From positions 2,702 through 66,701 of the forward strand of contig JAKASF010000001.1 of NCBI GenBank assembly GCA_021828295.1: DNA of 64,000 nucleotides, given 5' to 3'. Within the stretch, counting starts at the first letter, position 1. Each line of letters starts with the position of its first letter. Made by a program: the position numbers and the translations under genes. The notes under the pieces were generated by a model. That model did not search any database. It was given only the letters and a program-made list of their open reading frames with translations, and had not been told where the DNA came from. Shown here piece after piece: positions 4,023-53,838 of this stretch. This DNA is from Candidatus Micrarchaeota archaeon (GTDB taxonomy: Archaea; Micrarchaeota; Micrarchaeia; Micrarchaeales; CABMGC01).

Positions 4023-4026
4023 TCTG

Positions 4027-5642: not shown

Positions 5643-6011
5643 ATGGCGATAAACAAGTTGCAGGTCCTGCTTTATACCATTACTTTGGCTAGCATAGTGT
5701 CGGTTGTGCTAGGAGACAGCCTCCTGAGCTCGCTCTCTGCGACGCTCTGCGGCTTCGTCACAACCATAAGGACCATAATAGGCGTTCTCGCGCTTGCTCT
5801 CTTCCTTATAGGTGGAGTTCTATATGCAATAGCCCACTTCCTCCCAACATCTCTCGATTATAGGAAGAACCTGATGGGCTGGTCCACCGCAATGATAGTC
5901 GGAGGCATAATCGGCCTCGTAGTGGTCATAATAGCGCAGCCGCTGGTTACGCTCTTCATCCAAACGGGCAGCGCCGCCGGAGGGAGCGTCTCGAGCATCT
6001 TCTGCCCTTAA
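5643..6011 (+). CDS. Small two-helix membrane protein, VirB2/TrbC/CedA1-like pilin candidate (locus A)
   Basis: 122 aa. The order is a signal-like N-terminus (MAINKLQVLLYTITLASIVSVVLG), a hydrophobic helix (IIGVLALALFLIGGVLYAIAHF), a short basic loop (LPTSLDYRKNLMGW), then a second helix (STAMIVGGIIGLVVVIIAQPLV). It is a paralogue of 62893..63270: LFLIGGVLYAIAHFLPTS aligns with LFIVAGIFYAIGQLFPAT. Confidence 0.6.
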   Translation: MAINKLQVLLYTITLASIVSVVLGDSLLSSLSATLCGFVTTIRTIIGVLALALFLIGGVLYAIAHFLPTSLDYRKNLMGWSTAMIVGGIIGLVVVIIAQPLVTLFIQTGSAAGGSVSSIFCP

Positions 6012-6036
6012 ATAGCTTGCCAGCCAATCCAGCAGC

Positions 6037-7938
6037 ATGCGATTAGAGCGGGGCAGGCTTACCTATCTTGAGCTCTTTGTCCTGCTCGTGCTGTTCATAC
6101 TCAACGCCGGTATAGCGCTCCTCTACTTCTACATCTCTCCCGGCGCAGCCTTCTTCAGCGCGGCGTTCGTGCTCTCCGCCATAGCGTTCATCATCGCCTA
6201 CGTGCTCGGGCGCCACTCCGCGTCCCGCAGAGACGGTTCCATAGACCTGCTTCACGCCCTCTTCTCGCTCTCTCTTTTCTCGTACCTGATGTCCTTCCTT
6301 ACTGCTGGAGATGCGGCACTAGGTCTCGCTGTCAAGTTCATCATCTCGCTGCAGTCCATGGGCCTCTGGCTGGTGCTCCTCATCCCCATATTCTTCCTCT
6401 CCTTCACAAGCGTCTACTTCCTGAGGAAGGAGCGCAGGAGCAACCCCGCTGCAAAGCTCGCGCTGCTTGCAGTGGTCTTGCTGATTCTTATCCTGTACTA
6501 CTTCGTTGCGCTCAAGGGCATCTTCACCGCCGATGACGAGGAGCTGCTCAAGCTGACCAGCGTCTCGATGCTGCTCAACGGCACCAACCCCTACGCCTCG
6601 TCGATCTCCCTGCTCCTATACCAGCATACGTCTACGATAGGCGCCACGCTCACCACCGCAAACACCTTCCTCGGCACCATGGACTATCCGGCCCTCTTCT
6701 TCCTCTCCTTCGTGCCATTCTACTTCGCGGCGCAGCCTGTCATAGGAAGCCTCAACACCGTATACGGACCCCTGCAGTTCAGCACCTTCCTCTTCATACT
6801 CATCGTTGCGTTCACGCTCCTGCTCAGGCAGAGGCAGCTTATGCGGCCGCAGCTCACGCTCATGCTCGTCTTCGTTCTCGCCGCCACGGAGCTGTCTTCC
6901 ATAACCACCTACCTCATGCTTGCGCTTCTGCTCATCGCCTACGCGAAGATAGAGTCGAGATATGCGTGGCTTCCCCTCGGACTCTGCCTCTCGCTGCAGC
7001 AGGAGCTCTGGCTGCCAGTCTTCCTGCTCTTCGCCTACTCTTTCAACAACCAGGGATTCGGGAGAGGCATGCGCAACGCGATCGGCGCAGCCGTGGTCTT
7101 CCTGGTATTCAACGCCTACTTCATAGCCATAAATCCCGAAGCCTACTTCGGCTCCATCTTCGGCACGCTCAACCAGCTCATCATGCCCTTCAACCCCTCG
7201 CCCATCGCCTTCCTCATGCTCAAGTCTTACCAGCTGCCGCTCACCTCCTATCCAGTGGTCTTCGAGGCGCTTGCGCTCCTGCTCGGGCTCGCGTTCCTCT
7301 ACCTCAACAGGAAGCCGCTGATTCCCCTCTTCGGCCTGCTGCCATTCCTTGTGCTCGACCACATACTCGTCTCCTACTACGCCTTCTTCCTCTTCTTCCT
7401 GCTCTTCGCGCTCTTCACCTACGACCGCGAGAATCGCGCGGGATGGATAGAGAAGCGGCTGCGCGAGCACAGGCGCGGGTTCTTCGCCCTGCTCGCCATC
7501 ATCGCGCTCTCCACCCTGATCTTCGTCTATGCATCGCACTCGGCATACGAGCGGAACTTCAGCATTGGCGTGGTCAACCAGACGCTGTCGGTCAACAGGA
7601 CGAGCAACACCACAGTGCTCGACGCGCAGCTCGTCTACAGCAACATGAGCAACAGCACTCTCTACGTCTTCGCTTTCAAGTACTACGGAGTATCGGCAGG
7701 CTTCTCAGGCCTGCTGAACCAGAGCCTGATAAGCGAACCGCAGGCCTGCCCCGGCGGCAACTACACCTGCCTGGTGAACGTGAACAGGATAGAGCTCGCC
7801 AGCTCCTCGGGCACCTATCCGCTGCGGCTCACCATACACTGGTCCAACGCCAGCGATGAGGTGAAGGACGTCGCCGTTGCACTGTACAACAGGCAGTACT
7901 TCTACGTTGCGGACAGCGTCGGGGCTTCCGGAGCCTGA
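6037..7938 (+). CDS. Large polytopic membrane protein, GT-C-type glycosyltransferase-like, with sequon-rich C-terminal ectodomain
   Basis: 633 aa with more than 12 TM spans. The loop motif DDEELLKLTSVSMLLNGTNPY resembles the acidic-loop/'G-x-NPY' feature of DUF2029/PMT-like GT-C enzymes. The C-terminus carries many N-x-S/T sequons. Confidence 0.45.
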   Translation: MRLERGRLTYLELFVLLVLFILNAGIALLYFYISPGAAFFSAAFVLSAIAFIIAYVLGRHSASRRDGSIDLLHALFSLSLFSYLMSFLTAGDAALGLAVKFIISLQSMGLWLVLLIPIFFLSFTSVYFLRKERRSNPAAKLALLAVVLLILILYYFVALKGIFTADDEELLKLTSVSMLLNGTNPYASSISLLLYQHTSTIGATLTTANTFLGTMDYPALFFLSFVPFYFAAQPVIGSLNTVYGPLQFSTFLFILIVAFTLLLRQRQLMRPQLTLMLVFVLAATELSSITTYLMLALLLIAYAKIESRYAWLPLGLCLSLQQELWLPVFLLFAYSFNNQGFGRGMRNAIGAAVVFLVFNAYFIAINPEAYFGSIFGTLNQLIMPFNPSPIAFLMLKSYQLPLTSYPVVFEALALLLGLAFLYLNRKPLIPLFGLLPFLVLDHILVSYYAFFLFFLLFALFTYDRENRAGWIEKRLREHRRGFFALLAIIALSTLIFVYASHSAYERNFSIGVVNQTLSVNRTSNTTVLDAQLVYSNMSNSTLYVFAFKYYGVSAGFSGLLNQSLISEPQACPGGNYTCLVNVNRIELASSSGTYPLRLTIHWSNASDEVKDVAVALYNRQYFYVADSVGASGA

Positions 7939-7982
7939 CGTGCTACTATTTTTAATGTTAATGCGTATGTGCTACTGGTTGA

Positions 7983-8714
7983 ATGGCCAGCCTGATCGAG
8001 GACGCGTGGGAGACGTACGCGAAGAACATAAGGCTAGTGCTCCTCTTCTCCATACCGTTCATAATCGCATTCCTCATTCCCGCTCTGGTTCCCGTGCCCA
8101 CGTACATCTCGAGCGGCGCCATCTTCCTGAGGACCGCTAGCATCTTCCTCAACCTCAACCCCGCGGCACTCGCGATAATAGTCATCTCCCTGTTCATCTC
8201 CCTGCTCTTCCTCAGCTTCGCCTTCGTGGCGATAAGCCTCATAGTAAAGGCCGAGAGAACTTTCACCAAGCACCCCGCAGCCGTGTTGCGCGGCGTGGAG
8301 CAGTATACGGGCAGGGTCTTCATAGTGCTTCTAGTGTATGCGCTCATCCTGCTTGGCGTCAATGTACTCGGCTACTTCCTCAACCTGCAGGGCCTGCTCA
8401 CTGCAATCGTGGGCTTCTTCCTCTTCATGGCCATCTTCTACGCGCCCACAGCTATTGTGATAGACAACAAGCGCATAGGCACGGCGCTCAACCAGAGCCT
8501 AGAGCTTGTGGCGAAGCAGCCCGGCTACTTCATCATGTGGGTCGTGGTGCTGGTCTTCGTTGTGGGCGTGGTCGACTTCGCTGTGATACACGCAACGGGC
8601 ACGCTGCTCTCCAGCTACATAATGCTCGTCCTGAACTCGCTCCTTATTCTTCCCTACTTCGTCATCTTCCAGGCCGAGGCCTACATGAAGAGGTTCTCGA
8701 TACTCAAGCATTGA
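7983..8714 (+). CDS. Polytopic membrane protein (243 aa), unknown function
   Basis: About 6 TM spans and no recognisable catalytic motif. It lies between the pilin-like gene and the paralogue array. Confidence 0.6.
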   Translation: MASLIEDAWETYAKNIRLVLLFSIPFIIAFLIPALVPVPTYISSGAIFLRTASIFLNLNPAALAIIVISLFISLLFLSFAFVAISLIVKAERTFTKHPAAVLRGVEQYTGRVFIVLLVYALILLGVNVLGYFLNLQGLLTAIVGFFLFMAIFYAPTAIVIDNKRIGTALNQSLELVAKQPGYFIMWVVVLVFVVGVVDFAVIHATGTLLSSYIMLVLNSLLILPYFVIFQAEAYMKRFSILKH

Positions 8715-8730
8715 CGCGAATCGGCTAGCC

Positions 8731-8738
8731 TATTTATA
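8731..8738 (+). promoter_or_regulatory. TATA box TATTTATA for the paralogue-array operon
   Basis: Centred about 33 nt upstream of the ATG at 8767. The track's ATG at 8740 abuts the box and so is an unlikely start. Confidence 0.45.
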
Positions 8739-8766
8739 GATGCGTATTTCAGTATGTGAAGAGAGA

Positions 8767-9930
8767 ATGAGGGGTAATCTTGCGCTTCTTCTCATTTCAA
8801 TTCTGCTGCTAGCCGGATCTGCGGCCGCAGCCCCCGCACCGACAAATCCGCTGACCTGCATCTCCTCCGCGCCGGCGATAGGCGGCAGCGCGATAAGCAT
8901 AGCGCTCGTTGCCCTACTCGTCTCGCTCAACGTAATCGCCATAGGCTACATAATCAGCAAGCTCGTGCCCGGGACAAAACTGGGCGACTGGGTGAGGAGC
9001 GAGTTCTGGGAGGTGGCAAAATCTGGCATGCTGATCGCCGGCGCGTTCGCCGCCATCGTGTTCATAGGCAACGTCTCCTCCATACTCGCCGGCCCCGGTG
9101 CCGTATCGGCTGGAACGACATCGAGCTTCGCGGCCTCCGCCTCTCTGGTCAACGGCGCATGCAGCTATCTCAACGGCGAGCAGGTCTTCATGTCAGATGC
9201 TTTCAACTATCTGCTAGGCATAGCCGGGAGCCTAGGCGCTCTGGCGCAGCTGCAGGTGAGCGCCTATTTCCCGTACCCTCCCGTGCCCGTGGGGTTCCTG
9301 CCGGTCGACTTCCAGTTCGGTTTCCGACTCAACCCGTACAAGAACGGCATGCTCACCGTCGTGTCCAAGACACAGTGGAAGTCGATCCTCGGAGACTCCA
9401 TCTACCTCATAGCGCTGCCTGTGTCGTTCATCATCTCGCTGCAGATCACAATGCTTCCCATACTCTACCTGCTGGGAATAGGCATGCTGATACCTATGGG
9501 GATAATCTTCCGGGCGTTCCCGTTCACCAGAGGCATAGGCGGAGCCCTGTTCGCCATTGGGGTCGGCGTTTCACTCATCTACCCTACGCTTCTGGTGCTG
9601 CTCAATGCCCCGGTCACCAGCGCGCTGCAGACCCTGAGCGCTCCGGAGGCGCAGTCCGGAGCCTGCAACTTCAATTGGCTTATATGCGGCCTTGCAAGCC
9701 CCCTCCTCTCGATGATTAGCTCGTTCCAGGGCATCGGCACCGCGTTCGCAAGCTTCAGCAGCATCTTTCCCGCGCTCAACGGCATACTCTCATACGCCGC
9801 GTTCATGATACTGCAGTTCGTACTTTTCGTGCTCGATCTCGCCATAACTTATTCGCTCGCCAACAACATAGCCGGAGTGCTAGGCGGCACGATAAGGCTG
9901 GAGATAGGAGGCAAGCTTAAGCTGAGGTAG
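8767..9930 (+). CDS. Polytopic membrane protein, array paralogue 1 (VirB6/TrbL/CedA-like candidate)
   Basis: Signal-like N-terminus MRGNLALLLISILLLAGSAAAAP. Family motif IIFRAFPFTRGIGGALFAIGVGVSLIYP. The C-terminal tail ...GVLGGTIRLEIGGKLKLR is shared with the other paralogues. Confidence 0.7.
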   Translation: MRGNLALLLISILLLAGSAAAAPAPTNPLTCISSAPAIGGSAISIALVALLVSLNVIAIGYIISKLVPGTKLGDWVRSEFWEVAKSGMLIAGAFAAIVFIGNVSSILAGPGAVSAGTTSSFAASASLVNGACSYLNGEQVFMSDAFNYLLGIAGSLGALAQLQVSAYFPYPPVPVGFLPVDFQFGFRLNPYKNGMLTVVSKTQWKSILGDSIYLIALPVSFIISLQITMLPILYLLGIGMLIPMGIIFRAFPFTRGIGGALFAIGVGVSLIYPTLLVLLNAPVTSALQTLSAPEAQSGACNFNWLICGLASPLLSMISSFQGIGTAFASFSSIFPALNGILSYAAFMILQFVLFVLDLAITYSLANNIAGVLGGTIRLEIGGKLKLR

Positions 9931-9931
9931 T

Positions 9932-11326
9932 GTGATGTTCGGCATAGCAAGTATACTGCTGGATGCGTCGACACCCAGCCCCACCGCCGCGTGCGGAGTC
10001 CAGGCGGCATCTGGCTGGCTCGGGATAGACGGTCTGGTGGTACTCGCCATAGTGACAGTTGCCGCGTTCATCTACGTGCTTGCAAACTTCCTTCCAGCGG
10101 CGAGGCGCGAGAAGCTGCGCGGCGCAGCGAACTACGAGATACTCGAGGCGCTCTTCAGCCTTGCCTTGGTGGTCGTGCTCTTCGTGGCGTGGTCAGCGGC
10201 GTGCAACATAGGCCCGCTCCTGACCCAGTCGACTACATCTACTTCAACGTATCAGGGGCTCTTCGGCGCAGACACGACGTATCTCGGCAACCTGCTCTAC
10301 CTCAACGGCGTCAACCTGGTCAGCAACCTCTACTCTACGTCGATAGGCTACATGATCGTTGCCAACATCTGGTACCTAGGCGCTACGGAAACCGCTAACT
10401 TCTTCGGCAGCAATCCGGTCAGCGTCCTCGGGAAGACGATCCCCGGAGCAACCTCGTCGCTGAACCCGCAGGTTGACGTCCTCTTCACCGAGTTCTCCGA
10501 ACTGTTCACCGCCATCTACGGCGCCCTGCTTGTCGGCGCTTTCAGCACCCTCTTCGTGCTCTCGTTCATCCTGCCCATAATAGAGGCCGGGGCCTTCGCC
10601 GTGGTCATACCCGTGGCGATAATAATGCGTTCGATCCCGTTCGCAGGCCCTGCGCTGAGGCGCACGTCCAACGCGTTCATAGCCTTGGCCATCGGCTTCT
10701 ATCTCGTGCTCCCCCTCATGATCGCATTCAACTCCTACGTCGCCACGTGCCTCAACATACCATACGGCGGCGGAACCGCCTCGTGCAACTACCTCAACAG
10801 CTTCCCTCAGATAAAGCAGTACCTTTCCGGCTATGCCAGCGTCGGCTCCCTCACCTCCGCAACAGCATCGATCTTCACGTCAACCGCAACGTCCGGCTAT
10901 GTCTCATCCAGCGGCTTAAGCGGGGTTAGCTGTGCCTCGCCAGACGACTACGTGTATGAGAGCACATGTGGGGATTCAAGCACCATAAAGCCCGGGAGCT
11001 GTCAACCCTTCTCATCTATCGAGAGCCAGGTCTGCGGAACGTACGCGATAAGCGGAACGAGCAGCAGCTACCTGCCCACAGGCGCGGCCACGCCGCTGAC
11101 CTTCTACAGCACCGCCTTCACCGGGCTTAACCAGTTCATCACGGAGATGTTCAACAGCCCCCAGGAGGCCGAGTACTACGGCAGCGCGGTCGCGTCCTAC
11201 CTCTTCCTGAGCGTAGTGATGCTTGCGATAGACCTGGCGATAACGGTCGGGTTCGTCTACGGCCTCTCAAAGGCCCTGGACTCTTTCGGCCAGCTCTTCG
11301 GCAGCGGGCCGGTATTGGGTGAATGA
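9932..11326 (+). CDS. Polytopic membrane protein, array paralogue 2, with one Cys-rich YVYE module
   Basis: GTG 9932/ATG 9935, 1 nt after the previous stop. Motif IIMRSIPFAGPALRRTSNAFIALAIGFYLVLP. Loop CASPDDYVYESTCGDSSTIKPGSCQPFSSIESQVC. Confidence 0.7.
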   Translation: MMFGIASILLDASTPSPTAACGVQAASGWLGIDGLVVLAIVTVAAFIYVLANFLPAARREKLRGAANYEILEALFSLALVVVLFVAWSAACNIGPLLTQSTTSTSTYQGLFGADTTYLGNLLYLNGVNLVSNLYSTSIGYMIVANIWYLGATETANFFGSNPVSVLGKTIPGATSSLNPQVDVLFTEFSELFTAIYGALLVGAFSTLFVLSFILPIIEAGAFAVVIPVAIIMRSIPFAGPALRRTSNAFIALAIGFYLVLPLMIAFNSYVATCLNIPYGGGTASCNYLNSFPQIKQYLSGYASVGSLTSATASIFTSTATSGYVSSSGLSGVSCASPDDYVYESTCGDSSTIKPGSCQPFSSIESQVCGTYAISGTSSSYLPTGAATPLTFYSTAFTGLNQFITEMFNSPQEAEYYGSAVASYLFLSVVMLAIDLAITVGFVYGLSKALDSFGQLFGSGPVLGE

Positions 11327-13227
11327 TGCAGCGCTTTGTGTTTGTCTTTGCTCTGCTCGCGTTCGCGGGCCTCTTCGGCAGCGGAGTCGCGGCAAGCACT
11401 AGCAGCACCCTCATCACTCCCTACTCGGCCTTCCAGGGATGGCTCCCCATAGTCTTCCTCGGCATACTCGTCAGCATAATGATCACCGCCTTCTACTACG
11501 TGCTCGGTGTCCTGCTTGACAACAAGAACGTGAAGAGCAGGGCCGTGGGAGAGTTCGCTCAGGCCACCGGCACAGCCATGCTCGTGGTGATAATACTGGG
11601 AGTCTTCGCCCTCATGGGCACCGGGCAGCTCTCGTTCGTATCGCTGCTCTCGCAGTCTTCGCTCGGCACCGTCTGCGGCCAGCTATACAGCTCGCCCCTA
11701 ACGCTGCTGGCCAACCAGCAGCCATCTGGAGTGCCCACGGCCACTAACACGATATGCGAATCCGCAACAGGTTCGCTCGGGGATCCGGTCACGAATAGCG
11801 TGGATTACGGACTGTACGCAGCGTACATAGTGATGGACAACCTCACAACCCAGGCTGCGAACAACATGAACGCGATGTACCTGACAGAGGGTTGGCTAGG
11901 CTTCCTTGCAAACTTCAACGCTTACGTGCAGGTCTGTGCCCCGCAGGACACCTGCATAGTGCCCCTGGCGCCCAGGGTGTTCAACATCCAGACGCAGTAC
12001 ACGCCCCTCGCCGGCTACACCTCTCTCACAACGCTGCTCAACCCGGTAGAAACAGAGTCGGTGCTCACATTCTATATCCTCTTCATACAGATGCTCGTGA
12101 TAACCATATTCCTCTACGCCTGGCCGTTCATTCTCGCGGCAGGCATACTGCTCAGGTCGACGTTCTTCACCAGAAAACTGGGTGGACTCCTGGTTGCGAT
12201 AACGCTTGCCATGGTGGTGGTGCTCCCTCTTACATATCTACTAGAGTACACCGCTTTTACGAACCTGAACCTTGGCCCGATAGGTGCAAGCAGCATACCC
12301 AACCAGGAGCTCTACGAGCAGAACGGCGCAAGCGTGGCAGTATACGGCATGCCTTCGCAGGGATACGTGCCAGCGTCTGCGGCAGGCGCGACCGGCTGCG
12401 CACCTTCCGATTATGTTTATTCTACAACATGCACCGCTCCATATTCCATAGGCAGCTCGCCGGCATGCGTGCCGTTCTCGCAGGCGCAGACGAGACTATG
12501 CCTCCAGGGCGGTTACGTGTCTGCTACGACAACCCAGAACCTACACAGCTCGTGTGTCGGTTCTTCGCACGGTAGTGTAGGATATGTGTATGAAACCCAG
12601 TGCGGTGTTCCCGATACCGCAGGTCAGCAATGCTCGTCCGACCCTTCACCTTCAAGCCTCTGCCCGACCAGCGGCTACGTGCTTTCGTCTTCGCTCTCCA
12701 CAAATCTCTGCGACCCGAGCACGCCCTACATATACGAGACCACGTGCGGAGACAGCTCTAGCATTGTGTCAAGCTCCTGCACAGCCAATCCTGTAAATTC
12801 AGGCACGGGGCAGGTGAACCTGTGCGTCGCGCCGCTCGACGCCAACATCAACTTCTTCGTGCTGCCCAACGTCGGCCAGGTGACCGGCTACTACGGCTGC
12901 AACGTTGGCGGTGACCTGCTCGCCAACGAGCTGGAGTTCGCCTCATGGTACCTCACTCCGCTCAATGCGTACTATGCGTTATCGCTTGCCGGGGGCCTGA
13001 TCGGGTCGCTGCCGCAGACTCCGCTCAACGGTTTCATACCAAACACGTGCACCCCAACAAACGCGCTCAACGCCGTCTTCGCGCTCGCAAACTCGTACGG
13101 TATAGTCTTCGTCTCCAGCATCTTCACTCTCATATTCAACGCCCTCATCGCGATCGCCGCTGTCTCGGGGCTGGCGACGCTGATGGGCGGTGACACAAGC
13201 ATACTCGGAATGGGTAGACTGATATGA
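11323..13227 (+). CDS. Polytopic membrane protein, array paralogue 3, with three Cys-rich modules
   Basis: ATGA start/stop overlap with paralogue 2. Motif ILLRSTFFTRKLGGLLVAITLAMVVVLP. Loops CAPSDYVYSTTC..., GYVYETQCGVPDTAGQQC..., PYIYETTCGDSSSIVSSSC... Confidence 0.7.
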   Translation: MMQRFVFVFALLAFAGLFGSGVAASTSSTLITPYSAFQGWLPIVFLGILVSIMITAFYYVLGVLLDNKNVKSRAVGEFAQATGTAMLVVIILGVFALMGTGQLSFVSLLSQSSLGTVCGQLYSSPLTLLANQQPSGVPTATNTICESATGSLGDPVTNSVDYGLYAAYIVMDNLTTQAANNMNAMYLTEGWLGFLANFNAYVQVCAPQDTCIVPLAPRVFNIQTQYTPLAGYTSLTTLLNPVETESVLTFYILFIQMLVITIFLYAWPFILAAGILLRSTFFTRKLGGLLVAITLAMVVVLPLTYLLEYTAFTNLNLGPIGASSIPNQELYEQNGASVAVYGMPSQGYVPASAAGATGCAPSDYVYSTTCTAPYSIGSSPACVPFSQAQTRLCLQGGYVSATTTQNLHSSCVGSSHGSVGYVYETQCGVPDTAGQQCSSDPSPSSLCPTSGYVLSSSLSTNLCDPSTPYIYETTCGDSSSIVSSSCTANPVNSGTGQVNLCVAPLDANINFFVLPNVGQVTGYYGCNVGGDLLANELEFASWYLTPLNAYYALSLAGGLIGSLPQTPLNGFIPNTCTPTNALNAVFALANSYGIVFVSSIFTLIFNALIAIAAVSGLATLMGGDTSILGMGRLI

Positions 13228-14570: not shown

Positions 14571-14571
14571 G

Positions 14572-15621: not shown

Positions 15622-15631
15622 GGATGTCGGA

Positions 15632-16813
15632 ATGATCGGAAGAAAGGAGATCGCAATCTGGCTCGTGGTCCTGGCCGCGCTGCTAGCAGGAACTGCGTTT
15701 GCCGCGGTCCCGTCCTCAAGCGCATCATCGAGCTCCTCCGGCTGCACCATCTCCGCATTCGCGGGCGAGATCTCCCCTTGGTACTGCAGCCAGCTCAACC
15801 AGGCAGTTGCAAGCGTGTGGTACGAGTGGGCGCCTGTCGTGTTCATCGCGGTCCTGCTCTCTTTCTCGATATCCGCACTGATATTCCTCACAGGTGTAGC
15901 GATGCGCAGCGAGAAGCTGAGGAATTTTGGCATCGGCGAGCTGTACGAGACAGTGGCGACGCTTCTGATAGCCGCGTTCTTCCTTCTCTTGTCGGCCATA
16001 CTCTTCGGCATCCTTCCGTTCCCGATAACCGGCCCGCTAAATCCCTACACCACCTCGCTCACCTACATAGGCCATGTCATAAACTCCACGCAGACCCTGA
16101 TAACGAGCATGTACAATCCCATCATGATAGACTCCATGTACGCAAGCATCTCGCTCGGGGTCTGCGTTGGCAAGAGTACCGAAGCCAATGGCTGCGAAGG
16201 AAACACGCAATCGGCTTCTGGCGTCTCGGGATCGGGAGTTGCCACGCGGCTCGCAGGGGGCCTGGCGCAAAACGTGTTCAACAAGCTCGCTCCGGCGATC
16301 GCGCAGTTCTTCCTCATACCCGCAAACGCGGTCATGGGACTGCTGTCGGACGGCCTGCTCGCCCTCTACGCCGAGTTCTACTTCATACTCTTCTTCATGT
16401 ACATATCCATACCCGTGCTCCTCGTTCCTGGCGTGGTCCTCAGGGCCATCTTTCCGCTCAGGGCGGTGGGGGGCATGATGATAGCCGCGGCGTTCTCCTT
16501 CTTCCTTGTCATGCCTGTGCTCTTCAGCGTGGCGTACATACTCACGAGCCCCGGCCTGGTCTACCAGCTCAACCAGCAGGCGGCGCTGATAAGCGCCAAC
16601 GGGCAGGGCACGTCAGCGCAGACGAACGCGGACAGCGCGTCATCGGTACTGGCCCAGGAGGTGCAGGGGGTGCAGAGCGAGATGGGCGGCTACTTCCTGT
16701 CTGTGCTTTTCTACCCCGCGCTCATACTCGCGCTCTCCTATACAACGATGACCATAATCGCCGACTTCATAGGCGGCGCGTCGCAGATGAGCAGCAAGCT
16801 CAGGCTGATATAG
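15632..16813 (+). CDS. Polytopic membrane protein, array paralogue 6
   Basis: 10-nt spacer containing a purine-rich GAGGA. Motif VVLRAIFPLRAVGGMMIAAAFSFFLVMP. C-terminal tail IIADFIGGASQMSSKLRLI. Confidence 0.7.
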   Translation: MIGRKEIAIWLVVLAALLAGTAFAAVPSSSASSSSSGCTISAFAGEISPWYCSQLNQAVASVWYEWAPVVFIAVLLSFSISALIFLTGVAMRSEKLRNFGIGELYETVATLLIAAFFLLLSAILFGILPFPITGPLNPYTTSLTYIGHVINSTQTLITSMYNPIMIDSMYASISLGVCVGKSTEANGCEGNTQSASGVSGSGVATRLAGGLAQNVFNKLAPAIAQFFLIPANAVMGLLSDGLLALYAEFYFILFFMYISIPVLLVPGVVLRAIFPLRAVGGMMIAAAFSFFLVMPVLFSVAYILTSPGLVYQLNQQAALISANGQGTSAQTNADSASSVLAQEVQGVQSEMGGYFLSVLFYPALILALSYTTMTIIADFIGGASQMSSKLRLI

Positions 16814-16857
16814 AAAGATTATAAATGAGCGATGCATGAACCTATACGGGGTCTCCC

Positions 16858-17688
16858 TTGGCTATTTCGCAGAAGTTCCTTTTCTCGATCCTGATGCTAA
16901 TCTCGCTGATATTCATAATAGGCATCTACCTGCTCGATGTGCCAGCAGTCTTCAAGCTCGTGCTTGCAGTCCTCGCGCTCGCCTTCGACCTTCTCGCCTT
17001 CTCCACAAAGCTCTACATGAGTTTCTTCATCCCGTTCCTGAAGGCCAAGAACCGCACCGTTACCCTGGAGGCCGACGAGGCGTTCAACATGGCTCCCTCG
17101 GGCAACGCGATAGTGGTCAGGAGGGGCGGCAGCGTGTACGCCAGCGCATTCATCACCATACCAACCTACAGGTCCGCCACCGAGATGAACAACGAGGAGA
17201 AGATAGATTTCGCCAGGCTGTTCAGCAGGGCGCTCACTATATCGAAGAGCTCGGTCAAGTTCGCGACGCAGCTCTACGTGATCAACAAGGATGCTTACAT
17301 AAGCAACATCCGCGGCAGGCTCGACGAGGCGGAGGAGAAGTACCAGAACGCGAGCATGAACCCGCAGATGAAGAAGGCTGATTCGGAGCGCACACGCGGA
17401 GAGGCCACAATGTGGCACAACCTCTACGACAACGTCAACAAGGTGGGCTCTCAGGCCCTGGAGGCGTTCGCGATGGTCAGCGCCGAGGGCGGCACCGAGG
17501 AGGAGGCGATAAACCTGGTGCTCCAGCGCGCCGACGAGATAGCCTCTGGGGTAAGCTCCGTCTTCGGCGTCAGCGCCGCGGTGGTGGAGGGCGAAGACCT
17601 GCTGAGGTTCGTGGAGCCCGACCACATGATACCGCCAATAACAGTTGGCGAGCAGCTGCGCGAGAAGAACATGGCTGCTGAGATGTAG
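16858..17688 (+). CDS. 2-TM + soluble-domain protein, copy 1 (VirB3/VirB4-N-terminal-like candidate)
   Basis: TTG start about 30 nt downstream of ATTATAAAT (16817-16826). Two N-terminal TM helices are followed by ...KSSVKFATQLYVINKDAYISNIRGRLDEAEEKYQ. It is a paralogue of 17697..18521 and 61153..61884. Confidence 0.6.
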   Translation: MAISQKFLFSILMLISLIFIIGIYLLDVPAVFKLVLAVLALAFDLLAFSTKLYMSFFIPFLKAKNRTVTLEADEAFNMAPSGNAIVVRRGGSVYASAFITIPTYRSATEMNNEEKIDFARLFSRALTISKSSVKFATQLYVINKDAYISNIRGRLDEAEEKYQNASMNPQMKKADSERTRGEATMWHNLYDNVNKVGSQALEAFAMVSAEGGTEEEAINLVLQRADEIASGVSSVFGVSAAVVEGEDLLRFVEPDHMIPPITVGEQLREKNMAAEM

Positions 17689-17696
17689 GTGAATGC

Positions 17697-18521
17697 ATGG
17701 ATGAACGCACGATGATTTATCTTGGCTCGACGTGCCTGCTCGCGATAGTGATAATGGCGAGCTCCGCGGAATTCGGCAGCCTGTGGATAATCGCCTTCTT
17801 CCTTTCGATACTCGCCATAATGCTAATCTTCATACTCAACTACGCCGATTTCGTCGTGTTTCCGCTGTTCACATCGCTGCTGGGGGTCAAGATAGTGCCG
17901 GCGAAGAACTACTACATGCCAAAGGACAGCAGCAGCATAGTCAAGAACGTGGGCGGCATCTACTATGCAACGGGCTACCTCACAGCCAACGTCTACAACT
18001 ACGTCTTCGCCGCGGAGAGCGTGGACGAGGACGAGGCCGCGAAGCTGTCCGAGGGCCCCGACAAGTGGGAACGCATAGTAATGAACGCCGGCTTTCCGTT
18101 CAGGTTCAGCTTCGTCTCCGTCGCCGAGGACGTGCAGCGCTACAGGGACGAGCTGGAGGGCAAGCGCGGCGTCCTGGAGTTCCAGCTTTCCAAGGAGATG
18201 AGCAGCAGCACGCCGAGCGAGCTCACGATACAGGACCTGCAGAGGAAGATGAACGTGATAGACGCGAGGATAAACAGGCTGTCTGCTGGGGAGCGTCCCG
18301 TCGACTCCATCATGTATGTGGAGAGCACGGCCGTCGGGGTGAGCGAGAAGGAGGCGATAGACTCGCTGTCGAACCAGCTGGCTCACCTGCAGACACTGTT
18401 CAGCGCCTTCGACCTCAGCATAACGCGCGTGGTCGGCAGGGAGCTCTACCACCTCTTCACCTACAACTACGTGGTGCCCACCCGCGATGCGCTCGCGGAC
18501 ACGTTCAGCGCAGAGAGGTAG
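17697..18521 (+). CDS. 2-TM + soluble-domain protein, copy 2
   Basis: Two N-terminal TM helices. AGFPFRFSFVSVAEDVQRYRDELEGKRGVLEFQLSK aligns with ADFPFEFGLGVRSVEHVRILDALEEKRRLKEIELAR of the locus B protein. Confidence 0.65.
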   Translation: MDERTMIYLGSTCLLAIVIMASSAEFGSLWIIAFFLSILAIMLIFILNYADFVVFPLFTSLLGVKIVPAKNYYMPKDSSSIVKNVGGIYYATGYLTANVYNYVFAAESVDEDEAAKLSEGPDKWERIVMNAGFPFRFSFVSVAEDVQRYRDELEGKRGVLEFQLSKEMSSSTPSELTIQDLQRKMNVIDARINRLSAGERPVDSIMYVESTAVGVSEKEAIDSLSNQLAHLQTLFSAFDLSITRVVGRELYHLFTYNYVVPTRDALADTFSAER

Positions 18522-18561
18522 ATGTTATAAGGTTTGCCCAAGAATCAGAAAAGTTGATGCG

Positions 18562-20067
18562 ATGAGCCTCGTAAGACTGCAGAACATAATGAGCAACGAG
18601 CTTGCAAAGCGCACCATATTCAGCAGGCCCCCGGAGCCGCCGCAGGAGTACCTGCTCAACGATCCCACGGAGTCCATATTCATAGGCATAACGAAGCTCT
18701 TCCACGTTCCGTTCACCTGGACCTTCGCCAGCCTCACGAACCCGCACGTCGCCGTCGTGGGAATAACAGGCGCAGGAAAGAGCTTCTTCGTCAAGACCTT
18801 CCTGACAAGAGCCAGCTACATCTGGAACACGAACGCGATAATAATCGACTGGGCCGGGGAGTACAAGGCCTGGGTCAAGCAGAGCGGCGGCGTCGTGGTC
18901 TCCCTGGGCAAGGGCGACTACATAAACATAATGGACCTATCGGGGATGAAGCCGGTTGACAGATCGAAGCAGATAATAGGATCGTTCGAGATACTCACTG
19001 ACATAAGCGACTACCCCGAGCAGAAGAGGCTCACGGTCGAGGCAGTGGAGCAGGCCTATGTCAACTTCGGTTTCGCTATGGCGGACCCTCCGCCCCCTGG
19101 CAAGGAGTCGCCGACGCTGAAGGACGTGATCGGCCTGCTGGAGGAGAAGCTGCAGGAGGGAACGTACCAGTACCCTGCAGAGCTGGAGAACGCGGTCTAC
19201 AGGCTGAGGCAGTTCGCAAGGGAGGGCGAGGACTACTTCGCGAGGAAGAGCACCATAGATCTCGGCAAGCTCGCGTCGTCGGGGCTTGTTGCCATCGACC
19301 TGTCCAACCTTCCAGACGAGAAGTTCAGGGCGCTCGCCGCGCTCTTCATACTCCAAACGCTCAAGGAGAAGATGCGCATGGAGGGATGGAGCGCCTCCAA
19401 GGGCCTCAAGGCGCTTGTCGTGCTCGACGAGGCCTGGAAGGTCGCGAGCGACGAGAGGAGCGACGCAGTGATGATAGTCAGGGAGGGAAGGAAGTACCAG
19501 TTCGGGCTGATAGTCGCATCGCAGAACCCCACGGACATAAACGAGGCCATCTTCTCGAACGTCGGCACCACTATAATGCTCAGGATAAGGTTCGAGAAGT
19601 TCCTGGACTACCTGCAGGGCTCGCTCAACTTCTCAGACTTCATGCGCAAGGAGATAAGCAAGTTCGGAGTGGGGCAGGCGGCCATTGACATGTCCTTCCA
19701 GACCAGCGTGCAGTTCCCCGAGGTCTTCCTGATAGAGAGGGTCGTGGGCGAGATACCCCTCGACGTGTACACAATCACCATAGCTGACGTTCTCAGCCAG
19801 CAGGAGCTTTCCGACGCGAACGTGCAGAAGGAGTACTACTTCGAGAAGATAGACCTCAACTCAAAGTTCATACAGTCCAACGTCAACTCCGAGGCTATAA
19901 ACAACATCTTCAAGGAGCTGGACACGAGGAACCGCATGGTAGACGTGCGCAGCCTCGTGCAGGTGATGAGCAACGAGAAGGTCGGCAAGGACACGATAGT
20001 CGAGCTCCTCAGGAGCGTCGGGCTCTCCGACGCTGTCATCACCAAGGTCTTCGTATACGTAACATAG
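18562..20067 (+). CDS. VirB4/TrbE/CedB-like P-loop ATPase (FtsK-HerA superfamily), locus A
   Basis: Walker A VAVVGITGAGKSFFVK. IIIDWAGEY. Walker B ALVVLDEAWKVASD. LIVASQNPTDI. I moved the start from the track's 18487 to the ATG at 18562 (MSLVRLQ...), because the upstream extension is Arg-rich and overlaps the previous gene. Confidence 0.8.
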   Translation: MSLVRLQNIMSNELAKRTIFSRPPEPPQEYLLNDPTESIFIGITKLFHVPFTWTFASLTNPHVAVVGITGAGKSFFVKTFLTRASYIWNTNAIIIDWAGEYKAWVKQSGGVVVSLGKGDYINIMDLSGMKPVDRSKQIIGSFEILTDISDYPEQKRLTVEAVEQAYVNFGFAMADPPPPGKESPTLKDVIGLLEEKLQEGTYQYPAELENAVYRLRQFAREGEDYFARKSTIDLGKLASSGLVAIDLSNLPDEKFRALAALFILQTLKEKMRMEGWSASKGLKALVVLDEAWKVASDERSDAVMIVREGRKYQFGLIVASQNPTDINEAIFSNVGTTIMLRIRFEKFLDYLQGSLNFSDFMRKEISKFGVGQAAIDMSFQTSVQFPEVFLIERVVGEIPLDVYTITIADVLSQQELSDANVQKEYYFEKIDLNSKFIQSNVNSEAINNIFKELDTRNRMVDVRSLVQVMSNEKVGKDTIVELLRSVGLSDAVITKVFVYVT

Positions 20068-20074
20068 TGCTCGC

Positions 20075-20371
20075 ATGGCCGGAACCTTCACCATAAGCAG
20101 GATAGAGCTAAAGCGCATGCTCACCACCCTCGGCGTGAGCGAGCGCAGCATAGACGGGCTCGTGGCCGAGCTCAACAAGATGCACAGGCACGCCAACGCA
20201 GTTGCCTTCGCGGGCATGCTGCAGAAGGCGGGGCTGAAGGAGGGCGACGTGGCCAACGTGCTGAGGCGCATAGGCATAGACGACATCTCGATAACGAGCG
20301 TATTCGACACGCTCGAGGAGGAGCGCATAAGGAGCGCCTACGGGCGGGTTGTCGACATAGTGCTTGAGTAG
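20075..20371 (+). CDS. Small helical protein (98 aa) built from 'LxxxG[ILV]' modules
   Basis: MLTTLGVSERSIDGLV, MLQKAGLKEGDVANVLRRIGIDDISITSVF. The same module occurs at the C-termini of both locus ATPases (LLRSVGLSDAVITKVF; LRKLGIGEDELADSF). Confidence 0.55.
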   Translation: MAGTFTISRIELKRMLTTLGVSERSIDGLVAELNKMHRHANAVAFAGMLQKAGLKEGDVANVLRRIGIDDISITSVFDTLEEERIRSAYGRVVDIVLE

Positions 20372-20380
20372 GAGGTATAT

Positions 20381-20737
20381 TTGCCAAAGACTGTTTGCAT
20401 AATATGCGGGAAGGAGAAGAGAGGCATAGACGTAGCCGACGACCTCGTGCTCGACTCTATAAGGTGGTTCAAGCAGAACGTAACGCACAACGAGCGCGGC
20501 AACAGGCTCGTGGTGTGCAGGGAGTGCTATCCGAAATACGCGGCTAGCAGGAAGAAGTTCGAGTCGAGGCAGAGGCTCTACCTTGGCCTTGGCATAGTCT
20601 TCGCGCTGCTCAACGTGACGCTTTCCAGGACGCTTGCCAGCGTTGGCATCTCGCTGCTCATCCTGCTCCTCTTCATCTGCTTCTCCCTGATGAGCTACTC
20701 GCCAAGGATAAACATAAAAAAGCAACATAGTCAATAG
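20381..20737 (+). CDS. Zinc-ribbon (CxxC...CxxC) protein with two C-terminal TM helices
   Basis: TTG start 4 nt after a GGAGGT (20371-20376). CIICGKEK...VCRECYPKY, then LGLGIVFALLNV / ISLLILLLFICFSLM. Confidence 0.55.
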   Translation: MPKTVCIICGKEKRGIDVADDLVLDSIRWFKQNVTHNERGNRLVVCRECYPKYAASRKKFESRQRLYLGLGIVFALLNVTLSRTLASVGISLLILLLFICFSLMSYSPRINIKKQHSQ

Positions 20738-20767
20738 TAATCTGTTGGCAGAGATGGGCGTGAGCTA

Positions 20768-21502
20768 GTGCAGGAAGAGGCATCGGCTGCTGAGGCGGAG
20801 CCGAAGGTCGAGCAGGTCGAGTTCCCCGGCAGGCTACTAACCAGCGTGGACGACGTGAAGCAGAAGCTTTCGGGCATACCCTTCTACACCCTTCAGGCAG
20901 GCGCAGGCGGCCTGGAGATAGCAAGGGTAGAGAGCAGGAACATACACAAGAAGCCTTTCCTGTTCTACATAATAGACATAGGCTCAAGCTCGCTCAAACT
21001 CACATACTCGATAGTGCCTGGAAGCAGCGAGAGGCTTAGGCGGGCCGAGGTGATAAGGAACCTGGCGTCGCTGCTCTCTGTCGTGAGCGAGAGCTTCAAG
21101 ATAGACGATAGCAAGTTCTTCCAGTACGTGGACTCGGTGCTGGGCAGCCTGATGGAAGGCCTATCGCAGAGCTACAGCACGCTGTTCAACAAGTACGACG
21201 CGCTGCTCAACGAGTACGTGGAGGCGAAGAAGCTGCTCAGGGAGCTCGAATCCTCGAACAGGAACCTCACCATACAGACGAGCAAGCTGAGCGAGGACAC
21301 CAAGGCGCTCACCGCGCAGCTCAAGTCGCTGGAGACGTACTCCGACGAGGCCCTCATGTCGATGGTCCAGGAGTGGATAGAGGTGCACAACAGCTCCGTC
21401 GACATAGGCGAGTTCTCGAAGACGTACAAGGTCCCCGAGCCGAGGATCGAGCAGATACTCGACAAGATGGTCTCCATGGGCTACATAGAGCTGAAGAGTT
21501 AG
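20768..21502 (+). CDS. Coiled-coil protein with C-terminal winged-helix (locus A)
   Basis: GTG start, 244 aa. The central region LLNEYVEAKKLLRELESSNRNLTIQTSKLSEDTKALTAQLKSLE is a coiled coil. The C-terminus IGEFSKTYKVPEPRIEQILDKMVSMGYIELKS is wHTH-like. It is a homologue of 59358..60041. Confidence 0.6.
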   Translation: MQEEASAAEAEPKVEQVEFPGRLLTSVDDVKQKLSGIPFYTLQAGAGGLEIARVESRNIHKKPFLFYIIDIGSSSLKLTYSIVPGSSERLRRAEVIRNLASLLSVVSESFKIDDSKFFQYVDSVLGSLMEGLSQSYSTLFNKYDALLNEYVEAKKLLRELESSNRNLTIQTSKLSEDTKALTAQLKSLETYSDEALMSMVQEWIEVHNSSVDIGEFSKTYKVPEPRIEQILDKMVSMGYIELKS

Positions 21503-21511
21503 CTGGTTCGC

Positions 21512-21667
21512 ATGAAATATTTGGTAACAATAAACAGAAAGTACCAGTACGTCAGAGTCTACAACGTGCTGAAGAAGATGAACGAGAGCACAAACCCCCT
21601 CTCCAAGGCCGCGGAGAGGCTGATAGGCAGGTTCGTGCTCAAGAAGAAGGGCGAGGGCCTTGAGTGA
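21512..21667 (+). CDS. Small basic protein (51 aa), hypothetical
   Basis: Below the ORF-track size cut-off: MKYLVTINRKYQYVRVYNVLKKMNESTNPLSKAAERLIGRFVLKKKGEGLE. It fills the gap between neighbouring genes exactly. Confidence 0.3.
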   Translation: MKYLVTINRKYQYVRVYNVLKKMNESTNPLSKAAERLIGRFVLKKKGEGLE

Positions 21668-21679
21668 CGGGTGTGCCGC

Positions 21680-24022
21680 ATGCGTCCGGTAGCGAAGATA
21701 GCGATCGTGGTCGCGGCCTTCGCGGTGCTGCTCGCGGGCCTGGCGTTCTACGTTAGCAGTACGTTCTCTCAGTTCTCTCACGCCCCAGCGCCCCAGACGC
21801 AGCTCTCCGGCCCAATCACGCTTTCCGTCTCCGAGCCGTTCAGCGGCACCTACTCCATCAACGGCAGCGGCGCTGCAGTCTACTCGCTCCTGTCCTACTC
21901 TTCGGCAAACGCCACAAACGCCACAGTAACGATGAGCATCTACCCGAGGGATCCGGTATCGAGAATATATCTGCTCAACGTGAGCTCCACGTGCGTCGCG
22001 TGCTTCAACGAGAACCAGCTGAACTCGGAGCTGCAGAGCGAGTTGCTCTACTACAATCTCGTGGCAAACGGGACAAGCTTCCAGTACATAAACCAATCTG
22101 CGCTCTCCTCGGTGCCCGGCGGCTCGATAGTTATCGTACCGTCTGGCCTACTCCCGTTCTTCATGCTCAACGGCACCTCGTCGCTCATCTCGCTGCTCAA
22201 CAGGGGCGACACCATAATATACGCGGGTCTCAATTTCAGCAGATCTGTCGGCCCCAACGGGATAATCTTCATAAGCAGCCAGGCGATGCTCAACCAGCTC
22301 GGCCTCGCCAATCTCGACACCGTAGCGGTCAACTCGTCCCCGGTTGCAGGCAGCCAGGGCATAAACCAGAGCTTCAAGAAACCGACGTTCGCGTTCGCCG
22401 GCGGCAGCCTTTATGGCAACGCCACATTTGCCGCATCTGAGAACGGCACTGTGATAGCGTTCTCAAACTACCCCACCGGCTCGTGGAACTCGCCGGGCAG
22501 CATGGCCGCCGACATAGCCAGGGCCATAGCATCGGATTTTTGGATCCCTCGTCTGAGCGGCAGTGCCAGCACGCTCGATCTCGCCTCCAGGAGCGCGGGC
22601 AACCTTGGCATATTCTCTCCTGTCAGCGTGCCCGCGAGGAGCACAGCAAACCTGACCAGCCTGGTCAACGGCAGCTATACGGTGCTTACAATTACGGCGA
22701 TGAATGCGCAGTCGTCTGCAAACAGGAGGCTCGTCTCCCGCAACACGTACGAGCCCCTGGGTAGCGTGGGCGTGGCTTCCACTGTGGGCTTCACGCAGCT
22801 CGTGCCTGTGCAGATGCAGGTCAATAACCTGAACACGAGCCTGCTGGTGCATCTGGACGTGTACGACCTGAACCTGAGCTACGTGAGCTCCATCCCCATC
22901 GGTTTCATCAACAGCACGCTGGGCATAGTCAAGTTCCACGCGTTCACGCTTCCGAGCGGCTACTACCTTCTCGAGCTGAAGGACTTCAACAACAGGTACT
23001 TTGGGGGGGCCCTATTCCACATGGAGAACGTTACGATAACTCCTGTGGCTGTTGACTTCGCCAACGGGACCTTCTCGTTCTCGGTGTACAGCAATGGCCA
23101 GCCCGTGTCAAACGCCACCTACAGCGTCAACATAAACGGCCTCTACGGGAGCGAGGGGCAGGTATTCAACGGCGCGATAGACTACACGCTGCCGCATGGA
23201 ACTCTCATAGCCCACGGCGCAGAGAACTTCAACTTCGCGATACTAAACCAGAACTACACCTATTCCGCGCAGTACCAGTCGACGCAGCTCTACATCCCCA
23301 CCATATACATAGAGTTCGGCGTGGCCATACTGGTGGTGGTCCTCCTCAACCTAATACTCAAGCCGCCCAACCGCGACGAGTTCTACATCGACGTGCCAGA
23401 GTTCCCGCCTTCGAAGCGAGAGAAGGTGAAGGTCACTGAGAGTTCTGTGCTCGGCGTCTTCGACAAGGTCAACTACTACCACCGCTGGAAGTACATGCCG
23501 CTAACCGCAGACGAGCTCAAGCTCGGCATAGGAAACAACATACGCGTCAACAACATGCCCATCTCGATAACCATGCAGAACGCGAACGCGGCGCTGTCTG
23601 CGCTGGTGCAGGACAAGTCCGTCTCAGCGGCCTCGGGCTACTACGCGCCCACCGCATGGGTGACCGCGTCGGGGCACAGCGTCGAGTACCTTGCCGTGTT
23701 CAGGAAGCTGCGCGACTACTGCGTCGAGCACGCCATACTCTTCACGGACCTCGACTCCAACAGCACCGCAGACATGCTTATAACAAAGGACGGCAAGCAG
23801 ATGAGCGTCTTCATCTATTCGAGCGGCGCAAGGATGCACAAGCTCATAATATCGAGCGACTCCAAATCCGCCATCGTCTTCCTGAACGACGAGGCGGCGA
23901 GGGACTTCACCGCAGAGCTCTACAACTCATATGGAAAGCAGGCCGAGGTGCTGAAGCTTGGCATAGAGTACAACTACGTCAAGCTCGTGGACAGCGACCA
24001 CCTCGATCAGCTTGCGCTCTGA
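21680..24022 (+). CDS. Bitopic surface protein, sequon-rich ectodomain + cytoplasmic C-terminal domain (780 aa)
   Basis: N-terminal anchor/signal MRPVAKIAIVVAAFAVLLAGLAF. The ectodomain of about 540 aa carries many N-x-S/T sequons. A second TM (IEFGVAILVVVLLNLIL) is followed by a soluble tail of about 220 aa. No recognisable domain. Confidence 0.6.
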   Translation: MRPVAKIAIVVAAFAVLLAGLAFYVSSTFSQFSHAPAPQTQLSGPITLSVSEPFSGTYSINGSGAAVYSLLSYSSANATNATVTMSIYPRDPVSRIYLLNVSSTCVACFNENQLNSELQSELLYYNLVANGTSFQYINQSALSSVPGGSIVIVPSGLLPFFMLNGTSSLISLLNRGDTIIYAGLNFSRSVGPNGIIFISSQAMLNQLGLANLDTVAVNSSPVAGSQGINQSFKKPTFAFAGGSLYGNATFAASENGTVIAFSNYPTGSWNSPGSMAADIARAIASDFWIPRLSGSASTLDLASRSAGNLGIFSPVSVPARSTANLTSLVNGSYTVLTITAMNAQSSANRRLVSRNTYEPLGSVGVASTVGFTQLVPVQMQVNNLNTSLLVHLDVYDLNLSYVSSIPIGFINSTLGIVKFHAFTLPSGYYLLELKDFNNRYFGGALFHMENVTITPVAVDFANGTFSFSVYSNGQPVSNATYSVNINGLYGSEGQVFNGAIDYTLPHGTLIAHGAENFNFAILNQNYTYSAQYQSTQLYIPTIYIEFGVAILVVVLLNLILKPPNRDEFYIDVPEFPPSKREKVKVTESSVLGVFDKVNYYHRWKYMPLTADELKLGIGNNIRVNNMPISITMQNANAALSALVQDKSVSAASGYYAPTAWVTASGHSVEYLAVFRKLRDYCVEHAILFTDLDSNSTADMLITKDGKQMSVFIYSSGARMHKLIISSDSKSAIVFLNDEAARDFTAELYNSYGKQAEVLKLGIEYNYVKLVDSDHLDQLAL

Positions 24023-53743: not shown

Positions 53744-53838
53744 TGCTAATTTCCTTATTAGCGTGTCCTGTGAAGAACAGAGTAACTACTGACTCGTGAT
53801 GAAGTCTATATCGGCTGAGGACAAGGTTGAATGATAAG

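Follow-up and report, generated by a model that had tools for sequence, protein, structure and literature searches.

The stretch of DNA analyzed here (the window, 64,000 nucleotides of contig JAKASF010000001.1, assembly GCA_021828295.1) comes from a Candidatus Micrarchaeota archaeon whose genome assembly comprises 768,693 bp in 32 contigs and is 88% complete. Its phylum, Micrarchaeota, is part of the DPANN archaea, and the public sequencing runs in which this DNA was found are acid-mine-drainage metagenomes. Positions 5643-24022 of the window hold an 18-kb cluster of 17 genes, all called on the forward strand, which encode a putative pilin, six homologous polytopic membrane proteins, two related proteins with two transmembrane helices (2-TM), a VirB4-like ATPase and a large surface glycoprotein (Table 1). 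Taken together, these components suggest a machine that probably derives from type IV secretion systems (T4SS).

Organization of the cluster

An initial annotation of this DNA had listed about 18 genes. We count 17, while its co-directional layout, the pilin, the six paralogues, the 2-TM pair and the ATPase motifs all hold, as do the flanking genes that it named (MoxR/DUF2079-like upstream, Topo VI-B downstream). The paralogue array was placed at 8767-16813; it does consist of six homologous genes, with the first start at 8740. Junctions between neighbouring genes were described as ATGA overlaps or gaps of 1-12 nt. Two ATGA overlaps are indeed present (11323-11326 and 13224-13227), and the junctions range from -4 to 44 nt. 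When all products were scanned against Pfam, NCBIfam and PADLOC, neither the paralogues nor the 2-TM proteins nor the surface protein matched any family at its curated threshold. As the initial annotation had stated, the cluster contains no relaxase, VirD4-type coupling ATPase or integrase, and replication genes are likewise absent from it.

A VirB4-like ATPase with its N-terminal domain probably supplied in trans

The cluster ATPase, whose start at 18562 is backed by orthologues (an upstream ATG at 18487 would overlap the preceding gene), is a P-loop protein of the FtsK-HerA superfamily with Walker A and B motifs, carrying GITGAGKS, VVLDEAWK and ASQNPTD. Its homologues are proteins of Candidatus Micrarchaeota with 67-90% identity. 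NCBIfam leans towards the expectation that it would fall with VirB4 rather than HerA; in Pfam it scores about equally on the HerA and VirB4 profiles. The NCBIfam equivalog scores, all of them far under the curated cut-offs, were 69.8 bits for CedD, 67.2 for the CD1110-family VirB4, 63.7 for CedB, 58.8 for VirB4_plasma and 56.4 for HerA_Thermprot, so that family models appear to place the VirB4 and Ced ATPases slightly above HerA. Searching PDB sequences with the ATPase returned HerA and the C-terminal domain (CTD) of a monoderm VirB4. Since only about 55 residues precede Walker A, the protein has neither the N-terminal domain (NTD) of VirB4 (CagE_TrbE_VirB) nor the HAS-barrel of HerA.

A HerA-NurA repair system was considered and rejected: no NurA was found in the source genome, at its 88% completeness, which makes a HerA-NurA repair role unlikely, and the ATPase carries no HAS-barrel. 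What it shares with HerA is membership in the FtsK-HerA superfamily and the DUF87 match; it differs in a HerA score lower than those of the VirB4/Ced equivalogs, in the missing HAS-barrel and NurA, and in its context of membrane and pilin genes. Two further ATPases of the same superfamily were seen in this genome. One, at 60038-61324 on the reverse strand of the window, has a TrwB_AAD_bind domain, the DNA-binding domain of VirD4 coupling proteins, and several of its orthologues contain internal TGA stops. The other, of 521 aa, lies on a different contig (C16, locus L082:1348-2913), and its best NCBIfam model is CedD (4.9e-16, under the cut-off).

The two genes directly upstream of the ATPase had been described as encoding 2-TM plus soluble proteins. 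They are indeed paralogous (hhalign profile-profile probability 96%, E 2.4e-9), and there appears to be more to them than that, as structural superposition, Atlas neighbours and docking all point to VirB4-NTD-like subunits acting in trans. In an AlphaFold2 (AF2) model of 17697-18521, built from an alignment of 22 orthologues, residues 68-274 superpose on residues 219-384 of R388 TrwK/VirB4 with Z scores of 9.1-11.7 over 152-164 aligned residues, clearly above generic helical matches. Atlas neighbours of this protein are VirB4/TrsE/TraC proteins and a standalone 204-aa CagE_TrbE_VirB (PF03135) protein; alignment profiles of the 2-TM proteins found nothing specific among PDB sequences. ESMFold2 docks 17697-18521 on residues 1-24 of the ATPase with an ipSAE of 0.63, compared with 0.00 for the prediction tool's own controls; the partner pLDDT is 66-78 and the runs share at least 9% of contacts. 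The TrwK superposition, the Atlas neighbours, the predicted docking and an ATPase without an NTD of its own together suggest a divided VirB4, in which the catalytic CTD is one protein and two membrane-anchored, NTD-like subunits are supplied in trans. Comparable arrangements are the split VirB4 NTD of CedB/CedD (PMC11868833) and TrsD of pGO1-type systems, a standalone VirB4-NTD-like protein (PMC12102498).

Six VirB6-like paralogues and a putative pilin

All six polytopic proteins are homologous to one another (blastp E 1e-5 to 1e-8), and paralogues 2, 3 and 4 share Cys-rich extracellular motifs of the form Y[VI]YE[ST]xCG. The AF2 model of paralogue 5 has the stalk protein TrwI/VirB6 of R388 as its top Foldseek matches (E 0.19-0.31), and VIA comparison with TrwI gave Z scores of 8.2-8.3 with 237-239 residues aligned, nearly the whole TrwI chain. 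The same paralogue has an Atlas lead to a cluster with the CedA1 domain (score 0.90). For a helical membrane protein, this is moderate evidence that the modelled fold resembles the R388 VirB6 channel protein.

The putative pilin, of about 120 aa, starts at ATG 5643, with TTG 5619 possible as an alternative, and combines a signal peptide with two hydrophobic helices, the architecture of VirB2, CedA1 and TedC as judged from sequence and hydropathy. It matches the Pfam T4SS_pilin family (PF18895) at E 0.018, under the gathering cut-off. Its helices align with residues 32-82, in the N-terminal part of the paralogue at 9932-11326 (blastp E 1e-3; pairwise 9e-5).

Conservation across Micrarchaeota

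When one genome for each GTDB species was scanned, the cluster was found in 80 loci, nearly all of them from Micrarchaeota, including the closed chromosome of Ca. Micrarchaeum sp. A_DKE (L051). Literature searches turned up no account of this gene cluster from Micrarchaeota. The order 243-aa membrane protein, ATPase, glycoprotein is kept across loci, and the survey of gene set and copy number that the initial annotation had proposed showed the six-paralogue order to be kept as well: 49 loci have exactly six paralogues, each with its window counterpart in the corresponding position as its best match. The recurrence of this arrangement in 49 loci of other genomes indicates that the cluster is no one-off. 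Such positional orthology further argues that the array is older than the diversification of these lineages and that each paralogue has retained a distinct role. Considered as families, the paralogues occur in 133 of the 151 Micrarchaeota genomes sampled and often number 3-13 per genome, and the pilin in 126 of the 151, frequently in multiple copies.

Some matches fell in metagenome-assembled genomes (MAGs) with other labels. Those labelled Saccharimonadales (L031), Methanothrix (L053) and Acidiferrales (L065) carry the ATPase and downstream genes with 68-73% identity, and at least one cluster match was found in a MAG labelled Marsarchaeota. All stem from the same acidic habitats, and the contigs concerned probably belong to Micrarchaeota and were misbinned.

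Other genes of the cluster and the window

Of the two large membrane proteins upstream of the array, the 243-aa protein is conserved (about 40 loci, 32-83% identity). In one locus (L046, 14707-15971) it lies together with the pilin gene downstream rather than upstream of the ATPase module, a local rearrangement. The 633-aa protein, which the initial annotation had counted as part of the cluster, occurs in 3 of the 80 loci only, in one of these relocated elsewhere, and is not a stable cluster member.

Downstream of the ATPase, orthologues of the protein encoded at 20381-20737 keep a CxxC...CxxC motif. A weak Pfam match to VirB3 (PF05101) makes it a possible VirB3-like anchor; its alignment profile gave no match among PDB sequences, VirB3 included. 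The 783-aa protein that closes the cluster is predicted to have an extracellular domain of about 520 aa with 22 N-glycosylation sequons, one transmembrane helix and a cytoplasmic C-terminal domain of about 215 aa. Orthologues are present in most loci (31-70% identity). A sequon-rich surface protein of the system's own, as initially described, is thus encoded; a Pfam scan and an Atlas feature search found no family or fold for it.

Two other genes of the window encode candidate surface-related products. The reverse-strand gene at 47684-51046 encodes a protein of 1120 aa that carries a Laminin_G_3/ConA-like lectin domain (E 9e-88), along with weak hints of a pentaxin and of toxin receptor binding; it is possibly a surface lectin. 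The forward-strand gene at 53827-55359 encodes an Exosortase_EpsH-like transmembrane protein (E 5.5e-11), an archaeosortase candidate.

Table 1. Genes of the cluster and its flanks, in window coordinates
Feature	Position	Strand	Basis or remark
MoxR-like AAA ATPase	3105-4022		upstream flank
DUF2079 protein, membrane	4015-5553		upstream flank; PF09852, E 3e-27
Putative VirB2/CedA1/TedC-like pilin, signal peptide and two hydrophobic helices	5643-6011	+	sequence, hydropathy
633-aa polytopic protein, sequon-rich C-terminus, accessory	6037-7938	+	weak Wzy_C_2 match
243-aa polytopic membrane protein, upstream of paralogue array	7983-8714	+	weak BPSS1780 NCBIfam match
VirB6-like paralogue 1	8740-9930	+	homology to other paralogues; same position in 49 loci
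VirB6-like paralogue 2, pilin-like N-terminal region	9932-11326	+	matches pilin
VirB6-like paralogue 3	11323-13227	+	paralogue homology; positional conservation
VirB6-like paralogue 4	13224-14570	+	paralogue homology; positional conservation
VirB6-like paralogue 5, structure modelled	14572-15621	+	AF2 model, pTM 0.69
VirB6-like paralogue 6	15632-16813	+	paralogue homology; positional conservation
Putative membrane-anchored VirB4-NTD-like subunit A, 2-TM and soluble	16858-17688	+	paralogue of B
Putative membrane-anchored VirB4-NTD-like subunit B, 2-TM and soluble	17697-18521	+	AF2 model superposes on TrwK/VirB4
VirB4-like ATPase, C-terminal ATPase domain only	18562-20067	+	DUF87/AAA_10/P-loop_TraG
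98-aa helical protein	20075-20371	+	no family; conserved in most loci
CxxC Zn-ribbon and C-terminal 2-TM protein	20381-20737	+	weak VirB3 match, PF05101, E 0.041
Coiled-coil protein, C-terminal winged-helix-turn-helix-like region	20768-21502	+	weak Pfam matches only; conserved
51-aa basic open reading frame	21512-21667	+	present in some loci
783-aa surface glycoprotein	21671-24022	+	sequons, predicted transmembrane helix
Topo VI-B	24007-25614	-	downstream flank; PF09239, E 1e-52

Discussion

The data presented here make it probable that the cluster, which is chromosomal and conserved across Micrarchaeota, encodes a machine with its origin in type IV secretion and conjugation systems and with a role in contact with a host or partner. 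By analogy, it would most likely operate like the Ced and Ted DNA import systems and the VirB2-VirB6-VirB4 core of bacterial mating-pair systems. The pilin would be exported and built into a thin pilus, at the base of which the VirB6-like paralogues, all six probably joined in one hetero-oligomer, would form the membrane platform and channel. The VirB4-like ATPase, which consists of the catalytic C-terminal domain only, would power assembly and transfer, with the products of 16858-17688 and 17697-18521 supplying the VirB4 NTD in trans by docking on its N-terminal peptide, and the 783-aa glycoprotein would likely act as an adhesin or partner-recognition protein. Gene content, gene order with its conservation, the homologies and the structural resemblances are what the data show; that a pilus and a channel are assembled, which way transfer runs and what is moved we infer, and DNA import, as in Ced, would be our most specific guess at what is moved.

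Several observations weigh against this proposal. None of the components reaches a curated family cut-off, with VirB4, CedB and CedD scores falling far lower, and Pfam and NCBIfam scans of the cluster found no VirB8, VirB9 or VirB10, no VirB11 and no conserved VirD4; orthologues of the VirD4-like ATPase at 60038-61324 are confined to close relatives. The identity of the putative pilin draws on a sub-threshold Pfam match and a short hydrophobic alignment. For the array, the expected TrbL/VirB6 assignment has moderate support from R388 TrwI as the top Foldseek and VIA match and none from sequence families, the TrbL/VirB6 Pfam signal (PF04610) being absent from the window protein and from 25 paralogue orthologues. 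The structural match is itself helical and middling (Z ~8), a wide VIA search run without Foldseek preselection returned generic helical hairpins and no VirB6, Atlas shape neighbours of the paralogue 5 model are weak, and tblastn of one paralogue against plasmids gave no match. The docking of 17697-18521 on the ATPase was seen in two of three runs, the third scoring 0.00, and the positive result may stem from resemblance to the NTD-CTD arrangement of VirB4, which is already solved. Finally, the sequencing-run search listed no RNA run containing this DNA.

The initial annotation proposed a T4SS/Ced-related, VirB2/VirB6/VirB4-like system, which agrees with the NCBIfam ranking of the ATPase, with R388 VirB6 as the top structural match and with the weak T4SS_pilin match. 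Its choice of Ced as the nearest analogue holds for architecture; the sequence families differ and the host is a micrarchaeon rather than a crenarchaeon. Like Ced and Ted (the latter found in Thermoproteales and made up of TedC, TedA, TedB and TedD), the Micrarchaeota cluster appears to be a chromosomal, relaxase-free archaeal T4SS derivative. The CedA1 pilin is homologous to the N-terminus of CedA (PMC9905601), much as the pilin here resembles the N-terminus of the VirB6-like protein at 9932-11326, and Ced likewise combines a VirB4 function split over CedB/CedD with more than one VirB6 paralogue, CedA and CedE (PMC11868833). However, CedB and CedD scores far under the cut-offs, together with a CedA1 domain seen only as an Atlas lead, do not place the cluster in the Ced/Ted sequence families. 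Its host belongs to the DPANN Micrarchaeota, whereas Ced and Ted belong to Thermoproteota (Sulfolobales, Desulfurococcales and Thermoproteales). The Micrarchaeota cluster also has a fixed tandem array of six VirB6-like paralogues, appears to provide the missing VirB4 NTD through two small 2-TM paralogues rather than a second ATPase, and includes a gene for a large glycosylated surface protein of its own. Because its components lie outside the Ced/Ted sequence families, the most fitting description of the cluster is an archaeal T4SS derivative in its own right, belonging to the DPANN Micrarchaeota.

The six-fold array had been put forward as undescribed. It is new here yet has a precedent in the expanded VirB6 arrays of the Rickettsia rvh T4SS, in which islet A reads virB3-virB4a-virB6a..e, with five divergent VirB6 paralogues beside VirB4 (PMC2653234). 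Both systems place a VirB4 or VirB4-like gene next to tandem divergent VirB6 or VirB6-like paralogues and are conserved in an obligately host-associated lineage, which we take as analogy and not as a claim that the arrays are homologous. The rvh system, in contrast, is bacterial and diderm, has VirB8-11 and VirD4, none of which was found in the Micrarchaeota cluster, contains paralogues that are Pfam-detectable bacterial VirB6/TrbL proteins, and shows no split VirB4 NTD. The T4SS of Patescibacteria (candidate phyla radiation) is related to the monoderm MPF_FATA class, with TrsD common beside VirB4 (PMC12102498). It resembles the present system as a relaxase-free T4SS of a reduced-genome episymbiont, but it is bacterial, its component families are PrgI/VirB3 and VirB1 peptidoglycan hydrolases, and a six-fold VirB6 array is not reported for it.

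Ced in Sulfolobales imports DNA for repair by homologous recombination, and the Micrarchaeota cluster might do the same at the level of the community, serving mainly to import DNA from other Micrarchaeota cells for such repair rather than as a machine for host interaction. The core parts would be those of Ced/Ted (pilin, VirB6-like channel, VirB4-like ATPase), no relaxase or integrase accompanies them, and the split VirB4, the VirB6 paralogues and the pilin-VirB6 likeness all have their Ced counterparts. We nevertheless consider this explanation unlikely, given sequence families outside Ced/Ted, an episymbiont with no known system of aggregation upon UV or DNA damage (Ups-type aggregation pili are, to our knowledge, not known for Micrarchaeota), and a presence throughout a lineage tied obligately to hosts, which suggests a lifestyle function.

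Micrarchaeota are obligate episymbionts of Thermoplasmatales, which makes contact or transfer of material at the symbiont-host or symbiont-symbiont interface the likeliest role. In a co-culture with A_DKE, cryo-electron tomography revealed filaments and surface remodelling at contacts between micrarchaeon and host (PMC8975820); with the episymbiotic lifestyle, these filaments make a role in host contact and transfer the most plausible. In a more specific form, offered tentatively, the cluster would be a DPANN-specific host-contact apparatus with a hetero-oligomeric channel of six VirB6-like proteins, a VirB2-like pilus and a split VirB4, which either imports macromolecules of the Thermoplasmatales host (for example DNA or nucleotides, as nutrient and as a source for recombination) or delivers proteins into that host.

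The same lifestyle and filaments would also fit a machine that exports protein effectors or takes up nutrients at the host interface, in the manner of the epibiont T4SS of Patescibacteria or the SPEARE adhesins of Nanohaloarchaea. T4SS genes of Patescibacteria are needed for epibiotic growth, a finding cited for Saccharibacteria (PMC12102498) that also speaks for our main proposal, giant SPEARE adhesins are linked to VirB4 in Nanohaloarchaea (PMC10266531), and the cluster encodes a large glycosylated surface protein of its own. Pfam and NCBIfam scans, however, found neither effector candidates nor a coupling protein encoded in the cluster, and we regard this variant as improbable. A degenerate conjugative element, or the remnant of an integrative and conjugative element fixed in the chromosome, would explain the T4SS-like core; the lack of relaxase, integrase and replication genes, the positional orthology of six paralogues in 49 loci and the housekeeping genes on either side speak against it, and conservation largely refutes it, leaving it very improbable. 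A mobile element was rejected on the grounds of that orthology and the absence of relaxase and integrase, and a type IV pilus or archaellum was rejected as well, since the cluster encodes neither a PilB/PilT-family ATPase nor a prepilin peptidase.

How DPANN archaea interact physically with their hosts and gain resources from them is a long-standing open question. If our proposal of a T4SS-derived host- or partner-contact machine is true, a conserved pilus-and-channel machine shared by almost all Micrarchaeota would offer a concrete molecular candidate for host interaction, and the Ca. Micrarchaeum harzensis co-culture, in which filaments are seen at host contacts, makes it testable. The machine would have two unusual traits, namely the six-fold VirB6-like array and a VirB4 motor whose ATPase and membrane-anchored NTD subunits are separate proteins. 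It would also add to the lineages, Rickettsiales, Patescibacteria and crenarchaea among them, in which conjugation machinery has repeatedly been converted into machines that serve a lifestyle.

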